A stretch of 64,000 bases of DNA from Candidatus Parvarchaeum sp. (lineage in GTDB: Archaea; Nanobdellota; Nanobdellia; Parvarchaeales; Parvarchaeaceae). Of this stretch, positions 8,295 to 16,105 are shown piece after piece; the first letter of the stretch is position 1; each line of letters opens with the position of its first letter. Below the pieces are notes generated by a model. It saw nothing but the letters and a program-made list of their open reading frames with translations, made no database searches and had not been told where the DNA came from. The stretch is taken from positions 1-64,000 of the forward strand of contig JBMFWF010000002.1 of the NCBI GenBank assembly GCA_049965555.1, in the 5' to 3' direction. Position numbers and translations under genes: made by a program.

Positions 8295-9281
8295 TTAAGC
8301 CACTTGCCTTACAAAATTATCATTTTTATATATATTATATTTATTAAGCTTAAAGTTTACAGCTGAACCAACCATCTTAGGTTTATTACCTCTAAGCACT
8401 ATCATAGAACTGTCCTTCATTTCACACATCCAGTAGTTAACGTCACCGACTATTTCATTTGTAACCAGCTTAGCTTTTAAGGCCCCCTCGCCAGCAGAAG
8501 CCCATTCTGGTCTAAAGCCCCAACTAATTGAATCACTTTTCTTTATGAAACTCATTGGAAAATTTCCTATGAAATCTCCAACCCATCTATTCTTAGGAAA
8601 ATTATATAAATTTTCAAATGAATCAATCTGTTGGAATTTACCATCATTTAAAACGCCTACTCTAGAGGTTATATTTGAAGTTTCTCTCTGATCATGTGTA
8701 ACGTAAACAAATGTACTATGTAATTGCTCACGTAGTCTCTTAAGTTCCTCTCTAGCAGTAAATCTTACCCTTGCATCTAAATTTGAAAATGGTTCATCCA
8801 GTAAAAACATTGAAGGACTACGAACTAGAGCCCTTGCTAATGCAACTCTTTGCTTTTGACCTCCACTTATCTTTGAAACTGCGGAAGGCAAAATTTCAGA
8901 TATCCCTAAAAGTTTTGCCGCTGCTTTTACTCTTTTTTCTATTTGATCTTTTTTAAATCTGGCTATCTTAAGCGGAAATGCGATGTTCCTATAAACATCC
9001 ATATTTGGATACAAAGCAAAACTTTGAAAGACCATCGCTATATCCCGTTTATTTGGGGATAGATCTGTAATATCCTTTCCATCTAAAAATATTTTACCAG
9101 AATCCGGTTCTTCTATACCTACTATAATTCTAAGAAGAGTACTTTTACCAGTTCCAGATGGGCCTAATATTGCAAAAAGTTCTCCCTCATAAATTTTAAG
9201 ATCTAAATTGTCTATTACTGCTTTTTTACCAAATTTCTTAGTTACGCCTTTTAATTCTAATTTTATTTTATTTTTTTTCAT
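8295..9281 (-). CDS. Sugar ABC transporter ATP-binding subunit (MalK-like)
   Basis: GPSGTGKS, AMVFQ, ISGGQKQR, LLDEP, VTHDQ. Confidence 0.95.
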   Translation of the reverse strand: MKKNKIKLELKGVTKKFGKKAVIDNLDLKIYEGELFAILGPSGTGKSTLLRIIVGIEEPDSGKIFLDGKDITDLSPNKRDIAMVFQSFALYPNMDVYRNIAFPLKIARFKKDQIEKRVKAAAKLLGISEILPSAVSKISGGQKQRVALARALVRSPSMFLLDEPFSNLDARVRFTAREELKRLREQLHSTFVYVTHDQRETSNITSRVGVLNDGKFQQIDSFENLYNFPKNRWVGDFIGNFPMSFIKKSDSISWGFRPEWASAGEGALKAKLVTNEIVGDVNYWMCEMKDSSMIVLRGNKPKMVGSAVNFKLNKYNIYKNDNFVRQVA

Positions 9282-10099
9282 CCTGTTATACCTCCAGTTA
9301 AATAAATCCCCCTTATATACTTTTGTAATACCACAGTTAAAATAATTACCGGTATGGAAACAACAGCAGCAAATGCCGCGGCTTGTATTAAGCTTCCTTC
9401 AGTTATATTTATATAAACAATTACAGGTAAAGTCGGTTTTAATGGCGAAAGGATAACTGCGAATGTAAACTCATCCCAAGAAGTAAGCCAGGAAAGTAAA
9501 AAAGCTGCAGCTACCCCGGCTTTGGCTAAAGGCACTAACATTGTATATAAAGTTCTAAAAAATCCCATTCCATCAACTCTTGCTTGATTCTCAAGATCTT
9601 TAGGAATTGCTCTAAATGATCCCAATAAGATAAATGTCGCCAGAGGCAGAGTAAACAATGATTGGGCAAGTGCTAATGCAAATGGACTATCAAATAAACC
9701 TGCTTTTATAAATTCAACAGAAATGGGTATAGCAATTATAAGCGCAGGTACTAAATTAGCTATAAAAAGAAATACCATTATTAAGTTACCTAGCCTTTTA
9801 TTAAGCTTACTTAATCCGTAAGCTGCGGGTATTGCTATGGCTAAGGTTATTGCTCCAACCATAAAAGCTACTTCTAGACTTTTAAACAATGGAGCAACAA
9901 AGTGGTATTGAGTTAAAGCACTTACAAAATTAGCTAAAGTTAATTTAACAGGTAATTGCGAGGGGTAAAGCTTATCTAAAGTTGTTGATGTAGGAGAAAA
10001 AGAAACCAAAAAAAGTATGTATAACGGATAAATAAAGATTATTGCAATAAGTATAGCTGAAGCGTATAACAAATATTTCTTTATTGTTTTAATTTTCAT
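9278..10099 (-). CDS. Carbohydrate ABC transporter permease (MalG-like)
   Basis: About 6 TM helices; EAA loop IPKDLENQARVDG; WDEF. Confidence 0.93.
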   Translation of the reverse strand: MKIKTIKKYLLYASAILIAIIFIYPLYILFLVSFSPTSTTLDKLYPSQLPVKLTLANFVSALTQYHFVAPLFKSLEVAFMVGAITLAIAIPAAYGLSKLNKRLGNLIMVFLFIANLVPALIIAIPISVEFIKAGLFDSPFALALAQSLFTLPLATFILLGSFRAIPKDLENQARVDGMGFFRTLYTMLVPLAKAGVAAAFLLSWLTSWDEFTFAVILSPLKPTLPVIVYINITEGSLIQAAAFAAVVSIPVIILTVVLQKYIRGIYLTGGITG

Positions 10100-10100
10100 A

Positions 10101-10958
10101 CTAATCAGCTACCTCATAAACTCCCATTAATCTCTTTCTAAATACGACTATTAAAGCAAACCCTAAAACAAATGCAAATAGGATAGTAGCAGAGGATAAA
10201 GAATAATATAGAGTAGAACTTGTTGAATAAAATTCATAAGTCATAGTAGTAAGAAGTGCTGGACTATACCCAAACAGTATTAAAGGTAGTGCAAATATAT
10301 TGAATTCCGCGATTCCCCTCACTATTAACGCTATTGTAACAAAATCGGCAATATTTGGTAGAGTTATACTAAAAAATCTCCTTATCGGTCCTGCTCCATC
10401 TACAGCCGCAGCATTGTATAATTCTGGCGGTATCTGGCTCATGCCTGCAAAAAGGATCAAAGCAACTATTGGAGTTGTTTTCCAAGAATCTGCAAGCATT
10501 GTAGTAAATAAAGTCATATAAGCATTTGAATACCAGTTTATTGCGTGTATTCCAAACAAAGCTAATAAAGAATTAGCATAACCACCAACCGCTGGAAATA
10601 TTAGGGAGAAGGTGTATGCAGAAACTACCGTAGCTATCCCAAAAGGAAGTATATATATGGTAGAAAATATTGCTTTTCCTCTTAAAGCCTTTGTAAGTAA
10701 AGTTGCAATTAAAAATCCAAATGTAAATTCAATTGTTAGTGCTCCTGCGGTTAATAAAGCAGTATTTAGTATTGCAGAAACTATTCCGTAGTGGATAAGG
10801 GCAGTAAAATTAGCTAAAGTTAATTTACCTGTAGAGGGGGAATGAAAACTTTGAAAGACTGCAGATAAAGCAGGGTAAAAAGAGATACCCACTAAATAAG
10901 CTACTAACGGAAGAATTAAAAGTAAAGGTAAGTACTTTCGTTTTATCTTAAATTTCAT
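10101..10958 (-). CDS. Carbohydrate ABC transporter permease (MalF-like)
   Basis: TM helices; WKTTP, IPPELYNAAAVDGAG, ITLP. Confidence 0.93.
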   Translation of the reverse strand: MKFKIKRKYLPLLLILPLVAYLVGISFYPALSAVFQSFHSPSTGKLTLANFTALIHYGIVSAILNTALLTAGALTIEFTFGFLIATLLTKALRGKAIFSTIYILPFGIATVVSAYTFSLIFPAVGGYANSLLALFGIHAINWYSNAYMTLFTTMLADSWKTTPIVALILFAGMSQIPPELYNAAAVDGAGPIRRFFSITLPNIADFVTIALIVRGIAEFNIFALPLILFGYSPALLTTMTYEFYSTSSTLYYSLSSATILFAFVLGFALIVVFRKRLMGVYEVAD

Positions 10959-10998: not shown

Positions 10999-12468
10999 TT
11001 AAGCTGCTTTTAATGGTGCAAAGTAACCTTCTTCATATTGCTGTGCGTATGTTGTATTGTAGTTACTTACTAGGTATTTGTAAAGAGCTAAATTCTCGTT
11101 ATTTAATATTGATTGAATACTACTTTCAGTACATGCAGTTGCACCGCAATCATTCGTAACTATTTCAGTAAAAGCATTGTCGGCTAGGTTATCCCACTCC
11201 GTTATCCAAGCTACTGGTGGCCTAAAGAATGCTCCCTGGTTAAAGGCAGCTAATATAGCCTGAGAAGCTGCACTTGTATTTGTATAAGTAGCATTTGTTG
11301 TATTGTAAACAACTGTTCCTGATGTTGCTATTGATTCATAATTATCCAAACTACCCGGCCATTGATAATCAAAAAAGTTATATTCGTTATTGTTTAAACC
11401 TTTATAGGAAGCCCAGTAATCATGTGTATATGCCGGAGAGAAATATGCACTAAGATTATACATATAATAATAAGCAGCTACATCTCCACTATCATTTAAA
11501 ACCATAGGATTACCACCTGCTTGAACCATCCATTGAAACATTTCAGTTGAAGTACTTGCTCCACCATGTCCCTGCATACTTATGCCTCCAAGACCTAAAG
11601 AGGTAAGGGCTTTTCCTAATTTAAGTAACTCTGTCCAATTCGTAGGAGGAGTTGTGAATCCCGCTTTTGCCAAAGACTCCGGGTTATACCACACAAGAGC
11701 TAAATTTGCCCTGTAAGGCAAGAAGTAGACTCCTTTGTACGTTTGTCTTTCATAAGTGACAAGGCCTGCCATTGAAGGAATTAAATCGCTTGGTAGCAAT
11801 GAACTTGCATTTGTTATATTATCTAAGTATCCTGGATAAAATAATTCACCGATTGCTAAATTATCCTGAGCTATTACTGTTGCGCCTACTTTTCCACTCT
11901 CAACTAGAGCTTCAACATCACTTGTTATTTGATCAGGCCTAAGTTGTATCCAGTTTATCTTTATATTTGGATATATTGATTCAAATTCAGGAATCAATAC
12001 ATCTTCCATGATTTGAGTAGCAGAAGCGCTAACTCCTAAATCATCGTACATAGTTACAGTAACTGCTGGCCCATTATATGTAGGTAAAGTAGTGTTTACA
12101 GGATGAGCTGCATAAGCTTCAGTATCTATTGGAGGCCATCCTAATTTGTATAGTTCTTCCTGAGCCTGTGTCGATAAAAAGAAAGTTATTACAGTGTCTA
12201 TTGCATTCAAATTTGTAGCCCCTTTTGGAATTGCAAATACATCCCCCCCTATAAGATGCTCACTGTTATTTAAACCTGCAGGACCACCGTAAACTCCTAT
12301 TGTAGAAGACGAAGAAAATGCAGTAGGTACACTTACATTGGTAGAAGGCACACTAACTATTGCCTTCGAAACATGTGAGAAATAACCTACGAAAAAGAAT
12401 ATTACAGCCACAACAACAATTATAGCTATCATTAATCCACTAAAATTGCTTTTTGTGGAATTTTCCAT
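10999..12468 (-). CDS. Membrane-anchored sugar-binding protein (family 1 SBP, trehalose/maltose type) with rearranged segment order
   Basis: N-terminal TM anchor; IPEFESIYPNIKI, VYFLPY..N..LVWYN, PPTNWTEL, VQAGG, DYQWP, FRPP..W; first gene of the ABC operon. Confidence 0.88.
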   Translation of the reverse strand: MENSTKSNFSGLMIAIIVVVAVIFFFVGYFSHVSKAIVSVPSTNVSVPTAFSSSSTIGVYGGPAGLNNSEHLIGGDVFAIPKGATNLNAIDTVITFFLSTQAQEELYKLGWPPIDTEAYAAHPVNTTLPTYNGPAVTVTMYDDLGVSASATQIMEDVLIPEFESIYPNIKINWIQLRPDQITSDVEALVESGKVGATVIAQDNLAIGELFYPGYLDNITNASSLLPSDLIPSMAGLVTYERQTYKGVYFLPYRANLALVWYNPESLAKAGFTTPPTNWTELLKLGKALTSLGLGGISMQGHGGASTSTEMFQWMVQAGGNPMVLNDSGDVAAYYYMYNLSAYFSPAYTHDYWASYKGLNNNEYNFFDYQWPGSLDNYESIATSGTVVYNTTNATYTNTSAASQAILAAFNQGAFFRPPVAWITEWDNLADNAFTEIVTNDCGATACTESSIQSILNNENLALYKYLVSNYNTTYAQQYEEGYFAPLKAA

Positions 12469-12578: not shown

Positions 12579-14354
12579 ATGAAGATAAGTTACAAAGAAG
12601 GGATATATAGAGTAAATGTAAATGATTATAACCCAGTTGTTAAATTTAATTTCTCTAAAAATAATTTTAAGGAATTAAATTCAGATACAATTGATATAAA
12701 TAATGAAAAAATAGAGCTGTACGAAAGAGATGACAAAATAATTTTATCAAAAGAGCTTGATATAAAAGAGCACATTTTAGGTTTGGGAGAAAATGCTTTT
12801 AAGTTAGATAAAAGAAGATCAAAACTTACTCTCTGGAATACTGATGCCCATGATTATCTACCTAATACCGATAAAATGTATGTTTCTATTCCGTTTTTTA
12901 TATCAGTCAAAGATAAACATAAACTTGGTGTTTTTATTAACTATCCTGGGAAGATAACATTTGACTTTGGTATAAAAGAATATGATAAAACAATTATAGA
13001 GATATTTAACAAAAGTGCAGAACTCTTTTTTATAGAAGGAAAAACTTTGAAAGAGATATTAAATAAGTTTATTTCTATAACCGGAAAACCATTTAAAATC
13101 CCGAATTGGGCATTGGGCCATGCCGTATCAAGATATAGCTATTTCCCACAGAAAATTATTTTAGAAGTGTTAAAGGAGTATAAAAAAAGATCAGTAGTGG
13201 ATAGTATATACCTAGATATAGATTACATGGACAAATACAAAATATTTGAATGGAACAAAGATTATTTTCCAAATCCAAAAAAGATGATAGAGGAGATACA
13301 TAAAATGAAGACAAAGGTTATAACAATTATAGACCCTGCAATAAGACTAGACCAAAGCTATAGTACATTTAAAGAAGGATTAGATTATTATTGTGAAAGA
13401 GAGTCTGGTGAGATATATGTATCAAAGATGTGGGCCGGCGACTGTGTTTTTCCAGATTTCTTAAACTATAAAACTAGAGAGTGGTGGACTAATAAAATAA
13501 AAATATGGACAGAGAAATACTCAATTGATGGTATATGGTTAGATATGAATGAGCCAACGGCATTTAACTTAAATAATACATTTGATACAGATGTAATTCA
13601 TAAAATAAGCAAAAACGATTGCGTACTGCATGAACAGGTTCATAATGCATACGCTTATTTCGAAGCAATGGCCACTTATAATGGCTTAAAAAATGGTTTT
13701 ATACTATCTAGGTCAGGTTACGCAGGCATACAAAAATATGCTGCAATATGGAGTGGAGATTCTGTCTCTTCATGGGAAGATATGAAATTACAAATACCGA
13801 TACTATTAAACTTAAGTATATCTGGTGTACCATATGTTGGCTGTGATTTAGGAGGTTTTAATGGAAGAAATGATCCAGATTTAATTGTAGCGTACTACCA
13901 TATGGCAGTTTTCTTTCCGATATTTAGAAATCACAAAAACAAGCTTGAAAATGACCAGGAAATCTATACATTGCAGGATAAAGATAGAGAAAGTATAGAA
14001 AAAGCTGTAGAAATGAGATACAAATTTATGCAATATATGCAAGAATTAGCAGAACTATCACATAAATCCGGAACTCCGATTATACGCCCGTTATTATATG
14101 AATTTGAAGATGACGAGAATACTTACCAAATAAATGATGAGTACATGTTGGGCAGCTCTTTATTATATGCTCCGCAATTTGAAAGAGGTTATAAAGATAG
14201 AGATATCTATCTGCCAAATGATATGTGGTTAGAATTAAATACAAAAAAGGAGTTTAAAGGTCCATGTTACATAAAATCAAATGCTGAATTCCCTATATTT
14301 ATAAGAAAAGGAGCAAGCATAAAATTATCTGATGGGGAAAAATTAGTTTATTAG
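12579..14354 (+). CDS. GH31 alpha-glucosidase (MalA-like)
   Basis: GLGE, YLDIDYMD, nucleophile motif WLDMNEP, WSGD acid/base, GCDLGGF, PIFRNH, PIIRPL. Confidence 0.93.
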   Translation: MKISYKEGIYRVNVNDYNPVVKFNFSKNNFKELNSDTIDINNEKIELYERDDKIILSKELDIKEHILGLGENAFKLDKRRSKLTLWNTDAHDYLPNTDKMYVSIPFFISVKDKHKLGVFINYPGKITFDFGIKEYDKTIIEIFNKSAELFFIEGKTLKEILNKFISITGKPFKIPNWALGHAVSRYSYFPQKIILEVLKEYKKRSVVDSIYLDIDYMDKYKIFEWNKDYFPNPKKMIEEIHKMKTKVITIIDPAIRLDQSYSTFKEGLDYYCERESGEIYVSKMWAGDCVFPDFLNYKTREWWTNKIKIWTEKYSIDGIWLDMNEPTAFNLNNTFDTDVIHKISKNDCVLHEQVHNAYAYFEAMATYNGLKNGFILSRSGYAGIQKYAAIWSGDSVSSWEDMKLQIPILLNLSISGVPYVGCDLGGFNGRNDPDLIVAYYHMAVFFPIFRNHKNKLENDQEIYTLQDKDRESIEKAVEMRYKFMQYMQELAELSHKSGTPIIRPLLYEFEDDENTYQINDEYMLGSSLLYAPQFERGYKDRDIYLPNDMWLELNTKKEFKGPCYIKSNAEFPIFIRKGASIKLSDGEKLVY

Positions 14355-16105
14355 ATATTATAGATATCCAAAAGCGCGCTTATTAATGTAGCGTGTACAA
14401 AACCCTGTGGGAAATTACCCGTGAACACTTTATTGTGCACATCTATATCCTCACCAATTAAATTGTTTGGGCCAACTATACTTTTCACGTTTTTAAGCAG
14501 TTGTATAGCAGCGTCTTTTCTTTTCAGCTTTGAGTAAACTGAAGCGAGCCACATTGAGCAAAGAACAAACGCATGATTTGCCTTTCCAAGCGAATCGAAG
14601 TTATACCTATAAACAAATCCTTTTACAAGCAATGTTTTTTCAACTATCTTAAGAGTTTTAACAAAAATTGGATCATTAACTTCAACAAACCCATAAATTG
14701 GAAAGGATAATACTGTGGAATCCACTTCATTGCTTTTAGGGAAAGTAACAAAATAGCCGTCTTTTACGCAATTAGAAATAATCCAATTTTTAATTTCTCT
14801 TCTAGTTTCATCCCAACGATCTAACCCTCCTAAAGCCGAGATTAATTTACCTGCACTTTCTAAAGCGACCCATATCATGACTTTTGAATGAGCGTATTCA
14901 TGATCTTCAGGCTTTTCCCATATCCCAGAATCAGCAAGCTGCCAGTTATCAGACAACCAATCTGCTATATATTCTATTGCCTTTGAATGATTCTCTATAA
15001 ATTCTTTATCCTGCGTAGAATCAAAATAATTCTTTACAGCATATAAAAACTCACCCTCTATATCCAATTGTATCTGATTAGTAGCCCTATTCCCTATTCT
15101 AACAGGTTTTGAGTTCATGAACCCATTCAAAGAATCAATGTATTTTTCACCGTATATTTTTGTTCCATCAACTTTGTAAAGATTGTAAAGAGGTTTACCA
15201 GAATAATCTATCATGCTGAATAAGAATTCTAGCGCTCGTCTGCCCTCTATGTAAAAACCTAGGCTACAAAGTGCCGATGCCATTATCGCTGAATCCCTCA
15301 CCCAAACATATCTATAATCCCAATTTCTATTGCCTCCGGGATCCTCAGGCAAAGAAGCAGTAGGCGCAGCTATTATACTGCCAGTAGGTGAGTATGTAAG
15401 CCCAAGCATGGTAAAAACAGATGACCTTAAAAGCTGTTCGAATTCCTCTAAATCAGTATTTAACAGGCTTAATTTGATTCTTTCTGTATACGCCCCCCAG
15501 TAGTTTATAGTTGAGTCAAGTGCCTTTGACAGATTAGAAGAAGAAACATTTTTACTTTCTAATTCATAAATCTCTGCTGATTGATAATAAGACAGTATTA
15601 CCTGAGTTAATCCTTTTTCTATTTCCCATTCAAAATCTCCGATTTTTTTGTATTCTCCAATTATTTCTAAAACAAGCCTCCCTTTTCCATTTTTACTGTC
15701 GAATAGCATTTTCCCATCTTTCTCCGAATAATTGAAGTTCATTGTATGAAAATTGAATAGGGGGTTAAAATTAAGCTGCAGTTTTATCTCTGAGTTTATA
15801 TCCCTCACAAATATTGTCTTACCCGGTATCAAAAAATCATTTACATCTGCACTTCCTTCGGAAGTTTTAAAATTAGTGTGCAAAACATTTGGTGCAGTAT
15901 ATTTATGTACAGATGAAAACTGAATAGTTGGGCTAACTCTGAATACTCCTCCGTTGTTTTCATCCAATAGATAAGCTATGAATGGATCGGAATCGAATCT
16001 CGGAAAACAAAGCCACAATACATTGCCGTTCTTATCTATTAAAGAACTCGTTAATTGATTACTTATGAACCCTATGTCTTTGAAATCTGCGAAAGTTAAC
16101 GCCAT
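14351..16105 (-). CDS. GH15 glycoside hydrolase (trehalase/glucoamylase-like)
   Basis: WLCFPRFDS N-domain, IIAAPTASLPE, NWDYRYVWVRD, QLDIEG, DSGIWE, GNFPQGFVH. Confidence 0.92.
   Translation of the reverse strand: MALTFADFKDIGFISNQLTSSLIDKNGNVLWLCFPRFDSDPFIAYLLDENNGGVFRVSPTIQFSSVHKYTAPNVLHTNFKTSEGSADVNDFLIPGKTIFVRDINSEIKLQLNFNPLFNFHTMNFNYSEKDGKMLFDSKNGKGRLVLEIIGEYKKIGDFEWEIEKGLTQVILSYYQSAEIYELESKNVSSSNLSKALDSTINYWGAYTERIKLSLLNTDLEEFEQLLRSSVFTMLGLTYSPTGSIIAAPTASLPEDPGGNRNWDYRYVWVRDSAIMASALCSLGFYIEGRRALEFLFSMIDYSGKPLYNLYKVDGTKIYGEKYIDSLNGFMNSKPVRIGNRATNQIQLDIEGEFLYAVKNYFDSTQDKEFIENHSKAIEYIADWLSDNWQLADSGIWEKPEDHEYAHSKVMIWVALESAGKLISALGGLDRWDETRREIKNWIISNCVKDGYFVTFPKSNEVDSTVLSFPIYGFVEVNDPIFVKTLKIVEKTLLVKGFVYRYNFDSLGKANHAFVLCSMWLASVYSKLKRKDAAIQLLKNVKSIVGPNNLIGEDIDVHNKVFTGNFPQGFVHATLISALLDIYNI

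Follow-up and report, generated by a model that had tools for sequence, protein, structure and literature searches.

In the window analysed, a stretch of 64,000 nucleotides from Candidatus Parvarchaeum sp., the minus-strand open reading frame at 10999..12468 encodes a protein of 489 residues, P0001, a permuted family-1 sugar substrate-binding protein. It matches PF01547 (SBP_bac_1) with 56.7 bits (cut-off 26, E 5.2e-15), above the curated Pfam threshold; the match consists of two stretches, with one segment, hereafter the block, set apart from the remainder. TIGR03851 was dropped as a name for the protein, being a partial NCBIfam match below threshold (22.4 bits vs 399.65).

On the same strand, the gene is followed after 40 bp by a first ABC permease gene (10101..10958) and then by a second one (9278..10099), both of the BPD_transp_1 type, and by an ABC ATPase gene (ABC_tran, 8295..9281). 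A GH31 alpha-glucosidase gene lies divergent from it (12579..14354, plus strand; PF01055, E 2.2e-97), adjacent to a minus-strand gene for a GH15 glucoamylase-/trehalase-like enzyme with a TREH_N domain (14351..16105; PF00723, E 2.4e-57, and PF19291). A reading of the sequence alone had described the frame as intact and the operon as complete, and both statements hold: the frame runs through 489 codons, and two permeases and an ATPase adjoin the binding-protein gene. Permease or ATPase genes also accompany 35 of the 39 permuted loci described below.

On trees P0001 falls inside the TreS/TMBP-like family, TreS-like proteins of Sulfolobales and Thermoplasmata being close kin, and "trehalose transport system substrate-binding protein" is found among the automatic names of family matches. 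Elferink et al., in 2001, are said to have found that Sulfolobus TreS binds trehalose. Automatic names and neighbouring genes point to an alpha-glucoside such as trehalose or maltose as the likely substrate, and P0001 would act as the binding subunit, tethered to the membrane, of a CUT1-type sugar ABC importer in a DPANN archaeon of small genome.

The protein begins with a membrane anchor or possible class III signal (residues 1-31; 12376..12468, this and all following segments being on the minus strand), in which a single hydrophobic stretch spans residues 9-30 or so; on the Kyte-Doolittle scale the best window of 19 residues begins at residue 9 (mean 3.07), and canonical homologues carry the same kind of N-terminal anchor. 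In class III (prepilin-like) signals, processed by PibD in Sulfolobus sugar-binding proteins, K or R is expected at -2: read against this motif, the N-terminus (…KSNFSG/LMIAII…) has G at -1, without K/R at -2. A Peptidase_A24 homologue is encoded in the genome (55.1 bits, cut-off 26.5).

An S/T/N-rich tether (residues 32-56; 12301..12375; S+T+N fraction 0.48, one sequon) connects the anchor to the block (residues 57-119; 12112..12300; IGVYGGP...HLIGGDV...GWPPIDTEAY), which corresponds to what canonical proteins have between DYQWP and FRPP and whose limits are 52-123 by profile and 41-127 by BLAST. A new linker (residues 120-134; 12067..12111) leads to the first N-lobe strand and thus to the collinear core 1 (residues 135-371; 11356..12066), comprising N-lobe part I, hinge I and C-lobe part I and ending in DYQWP. 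The old insertion site is closed by residues 372-400 (11269..11355; GSLDNYESIATSGTVVYNTTNATYTNTSA; S+T+N 0.52, three sequons), and the collinear core 2, placed by BLASTP and alignment, takes up residues 401-489 (11002..11268), with the hinge-III helix region and C-lobe part II. In a composition scan the linkers are rich in S, T and N and contain N-x-S/T sequons. At the closure, the sequence …SGTVVYNTT… bears some likeness to the canonical block start (…SSLGVYPGP…), but too faint a one for it to be called a relic of the old block. The positions given in the sequence-only reading are exact: the block at residues 57-119 (nt 12300-12112), VTVTMYDD from residue 136, DYQWP at 367-371 and FRPP at 415-418, these last two being separated by 43 residues (372-414), as claimed.

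That reading had proposed that a block of about 65 residues was shifted from between W-P and R-P to the N-terminus and the old site closed, and had named collinearity with standard homologues as what would speak against it. Pairwise, multiple and profile alignments all bear the proposal out. In a BLASTP comparison with the canonical Sulfolobales protein P0007, the alignment is non-collinear: the first segment pair (query 135-486, subject 48-457; 42% identity, E 4e-105) has a gap of about 70 residues in the query, opposite subject residues ~294-376, and this gap is filled by a second pair (query 41-127, subject 294-376; 45% identity, E 3e-19). An order of this kind lies far outside what chance would produce. 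The spacing between QWP and the arginine of FFRxP tells the same: it is 103-111 residues in the canonical proteins (those 59 of the 65 where both motifs could be located), vs 45-46 in all six ARMAN-type and 33-36 in all six Thermoplasmata-type permuted proteins. The chain of the permuted clade can be written as anchor-C-A-B-D, vs anchor-A-B-C-D in the canonical form, with part D still last. P0001 departs from the canonical order N-I, C-I, N-II, C-II in that the equivalent of hinge II plus N-II precedes N-I; its order is no cyclic rotation of the canonical one either, and the permutation is thus non-circular.

Canonical proteins of the TreS/TMBP type (Sulfolobales P0007, P0013, P0014 and P0017; Thermococcus litoralis TMBP, 1EU8) belong to the same Pfam family and have the same operon partners. 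Their identity with P0001 is 40-55% over the core (the range found for core 1) and 39-54% over the block; they differ in that their block lies between DYQWP and FFRxP, whereas in permuted proteins it lies behind the anchor.

Although first noticed in a single gene and taken as its oddity, the permuted order characterises an entire clade, which has conserved it; 12 protein clusters and at least 39 genome loci show it. Within the close family (P0001-P0076, n=76) the block stands ahead of the core in 11 proteins and behind it in 65; among the 150 representatives listed of 275 matches, the permuted order was seen only in P0002, P0080 and the fragment P0085. The block HMM matches 158 of 227 proteins, and a match within the first 35% of the chain is confined to the 13 permuted ones. 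One protein of 856 residues, P0222, is the only one with two block-profile matches, both in the interior of the chain. Neither among P0001-P0076 nor among 48 genome loci was a protein found with both copies of the block, at the new and at the old site. When residues 41-135 were compared with a large protein collection, only the six ARMAN-type clusters to which the query itself belongs were recovered (6 of 72 candidates), a result uninformative on other families.

The 48 genome loci comprise 39 permuted and 5 canonical ones, a ratio that says nothing on prevalence, since the pattern used for the scan (…YQWPGS) favours permuted forms, and 4 partial ones at contig ends, with the spacing of a closed site. 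Of the permuted loci, 6 are from DPANN (ARMAN-5-like) and 33 from Thermoplasmata, the latter including one in the complete genome of the cultured Oxyplasma meridianum. Mis-assembly, the other outcome that the sequence-only reading had set against its own proposal, is excluded by the presence of the same order in these 39 independently assembled loci, a finished genome among them.

More generally, the arrangement could be an artefact of assembly or gene calling, with a chimeric order, or belong to a decaying gene whose N-terminal block persists as a functionless remnant. One orthologue, in the draft genome of Thermogymnomonas acidicola, is indeed spread across three reading frames. Besides the independent loci, however, the intact 489-codon frame speaks against this view, as does the lack of a canonical paralogue in all six genomes examined: the gene is the sole family member in its 0.78-Mb genome, and five other genomes have only the permuted gene at E<=1e-10.

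The block itself, moreover, is conserved to the same degree as the core. Across 12 permuted proteins 13 of its positions are invariant, among them V59, Y60, G62, G65, H71, L72, G74 and G75. Between P0001 and six DPANN orthologues, dN is 0.014-0.19 for the block, 0.043-0.195 for core 1 and 0.14-0.52 for anchor and tether; dS is saturated in most of these comparisons. Block dN does not exceed that of core 1 in five of the six, and the tether (residues 32-56) is the fastest-evolving part of the protein (dN 0.14-0.52). The block evolves, that is, about as slowly as the core. Taken with the independent loci and the intact frame, this rules out mis-assembly and a decaying gene for practical purposes, and leaves artefact or decay a negligible chance; partial duplication, as a reading of the block, was rejected along with them.

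The junctions are also shared. All 12 permuted proteins have GS directly after QWP, where all 70 canonical ones have Y[IV]; for the genome loci the same count would be circular, since the scan pattern itself contains QWPGS. From the motif at the end of the block to strand beta-1, a script counted 18-23 residues in the six Thermoplasmata-type proteins; its beta-1 pattern was unmatched in the six ARMAN-type ones, and for P0001 a count by hand gives 20 residues (116-135).

The block was left out of all trees, and in each of them the permuted proteins group on a single branch: 12 of 12 in a tree of 87 rows and 37 of 37 in one of 76 rows, with SH-aLRT 94 in both, and 24 of 24 in a tree of 47 rows, with UFBoot 91 and SH-aLRT 86. 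For this last set, one change is enough in 90% of 200 bootstrap trees. The branch joining the permuted forms is unstarred in all three trees, and within it the DPANN and Thermoplasmata forms are reciprocally monophyletic. The support for a single origin of the permuted order is, on these sequence comparisons, moderate.

The same block might instead have been transposed twice, once in DPANN and once in Thermoplasmata, as a convergent re-wiring. The values of the uniting branch (94 in the quick trees, 91/86 in the careful one) are not strong, and the closure loops differ in length (45-46 vs 33-36 residues). The ARMAN-type block, too, is closer to canonical blocks (39-54% identity) than to most Thermoplasmata blocks (31-48%), which may reflect either faster evolution of the latter or separate histories of the two groups. 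Against two events stand, in addition to the single branch and the bootstrap result, the identical boundaries of the block, the QWP-GS junction, seen in all 12 permuted and none of the 70 canonical proteins, and the likeness of the new linkers (…T-T-[LV]-P-[ST]-[YI]…N-[GA]…). Furthermore, ARMAN-type archaea live on Thermoplasmatales hosts, Cuniculiplasma among them, to which they are attached (PMC5498576), and this attachment offers a route for transfer. We therefore regard two independent transpositions as very improbable. The rearrangement would rather have arisen once and later moved between Thermoplasmata and their DPANN associates, plausibly in that a second copy of the block was gained at the 5' end of the gene and the original one was then lost.

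To place the block within the fold, a profile was built from 38 blocks, 33 of which N-terminal, and compared with solved structures; the canonical family profile is itself collinear with TMBP (1EU8, E 2e-36). The block profile matched 55 binding proteins at E<=1 and, among the rows read, its matches fall at about residues 200-370 of chains of 234-566 residues: GacH 292-339 of 409, TMBP 287-332 of 409, UgpB 284-336 of 419, MalE1 260-307 of 375 and PotD 235-272 of 325. One weak match (E 0.59) is a 50-residue fragment of a viral polyprotein, which is no binding protein. A feature search of the ESM Atlas returned only ordinary family-1 binding-protein clusters. The first short strand of the block, IGVYGGP, we take to lie in the C-lobe, by analogy with E. 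coli MBP and from the MalE1 match coordinates.

For the domain mapping, the limits of TdCIBP and MBP were used. The scheme published for this structural cluster is N-I, hinge I, C-I, hinge II, N-II (66 residues), hinge III, C-II (PMC13084667), and in MBP residues 5-105 and 266-313 are assigned to the NTD and 115-251 and 334-370 to the CTD (PMC12723730). By homology, the block would correspond to the second hinge strand plus the second sub-domain of the N-lobe (N-lobe part II), about 60-72 residues in all. The sugar-binding proteins of Cluster D-I (TdCIBP; E. coli MBP) follow the same modular scheme N-I / C-I / N-II / C-II, and the block agrees with their N-II in size (66 residues in TdCIBP) and position; they have three inter-lobe crossings, whereas two are predicted for the permuted clade.

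The canonical chain would thus run through the anchor, N-lobe part I, hinge I, C-lobe part I, hinge II, N-lobe part II, hinge III and C-lobe part II; in the permuted chain, hinge strand II and N-lobe part II would come directly behind the anchor, and a short S/T/N-rich loop would close the old site. We infer from homology how such a protein may be packed, crossed and tethered. The bilobed fold would be the same, the N-terminal block adding its strand to the N-lobe sheet and being joined to strand 1 by a linker of some 15-20 residues; two covalent inter-lobe crossings (hinge I and hinge II) would be left and the third lost, and the membrane tether would enter at the hinge/C-lobe side, no longer at the distal end of the N-lobe.

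The block could also complete the N-lobe of a neighbouring protomer in place of that of its own body, giving a domain-swapped oligomer. The flexible S/T/N-rich linkers on both of its sides would permit this, and swapped elements have been seen in engineered circularly permuted constructs of ribose-binding protein (PMC10601554). Yet the linker to strand 1, at about 15-20 residues, is conserved in length and estimated to be long enough for an intramolecular connection, and nothing anywhere in the sequence demands swapping; a swapped oligomer is accordingly judged improbable. Probable, in our assessment, is the account as a whole in which P0001 is a TreS/TMBP-like binding subunit, permuted non-circularly and by a single origin, which would keep the same bilobed fold with two crossings. 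That the relocation was an adaptive re-wiring and not a neutral accident, whether because loss of the third connection and attachment of the tether at the hinge altered the open/closed equilibrium or the orientation towards the permease, or because the block completes the neighbour's lobe, is a distinct and rather unlikely proposition.

In the literature searched on permuted or non-sequential binding proteins, no prior description of this rearrangement was found; the natural changes of chain topology met in print were one circular permutation and an ancient difference between classes. The former is seen in the Treponema pallidum glucose-binding protein TpMglB-2 (Tp0684), which is circularly permuted and classed as "Type Ic / Cluster Bc"; the authors raise the possibility that this topology is adapted to tethering at the membrane (PMC4990184). 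TpMglB-2 resembles P0001 in being a tethered sugar-binding protein whose topology has changed naturally and throughout a clade, and it keeps ligand binding (PMC4990184); it has, however, a type I fold and a circular permutation, whereas P0001 is of type II (PF01547) and its C-A-B-D order is no rotation of A-B-C-D.

Substrate-binding proteins serve as a model system in work on domain motion, on biosensors and their design and on how folds evolve, and very few natural changes in their chain topology are at hand. Concerning the ancient one, Fukami-Kobayashi et al. reportedly described, in 1999, a "domain dislocation", by which a strand-bearing segment was relocated between class I and class II periplasmic binding proteins and the wiring of the lobes changed; that difference is said to be an old, between-class one inferred from structures, while the permuted clade is recent and falls within one close family.

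In this clade, with its at least 39 loci, cultivable Thermoplasmatales included, a hinge-strand element of about 65 residues has been moved from inside the chain to the N-terminus and is still constrained there. The clade provides a test, set by nature, of the number of covalent hinges that the flytrap requires and a study case for the rise of non-circular permutations, and it is a warning to annotation and alignment pipelines that assume collinearity. If adaptive re-wiring were true, the Venus-flytrap fold would work with two crossings, not three, and non-circular permutations would arise via an intermediate in which two copies of the block compete for one site; should the block complete the lobe of a neighbour, covalently independent and structurally interlocked arrays would result. 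The permuted order is, finally, a shared derived character linking the sugar-uptake clusters of acidophilic DPANN archaea and of their Thermoplasmata neighbours.

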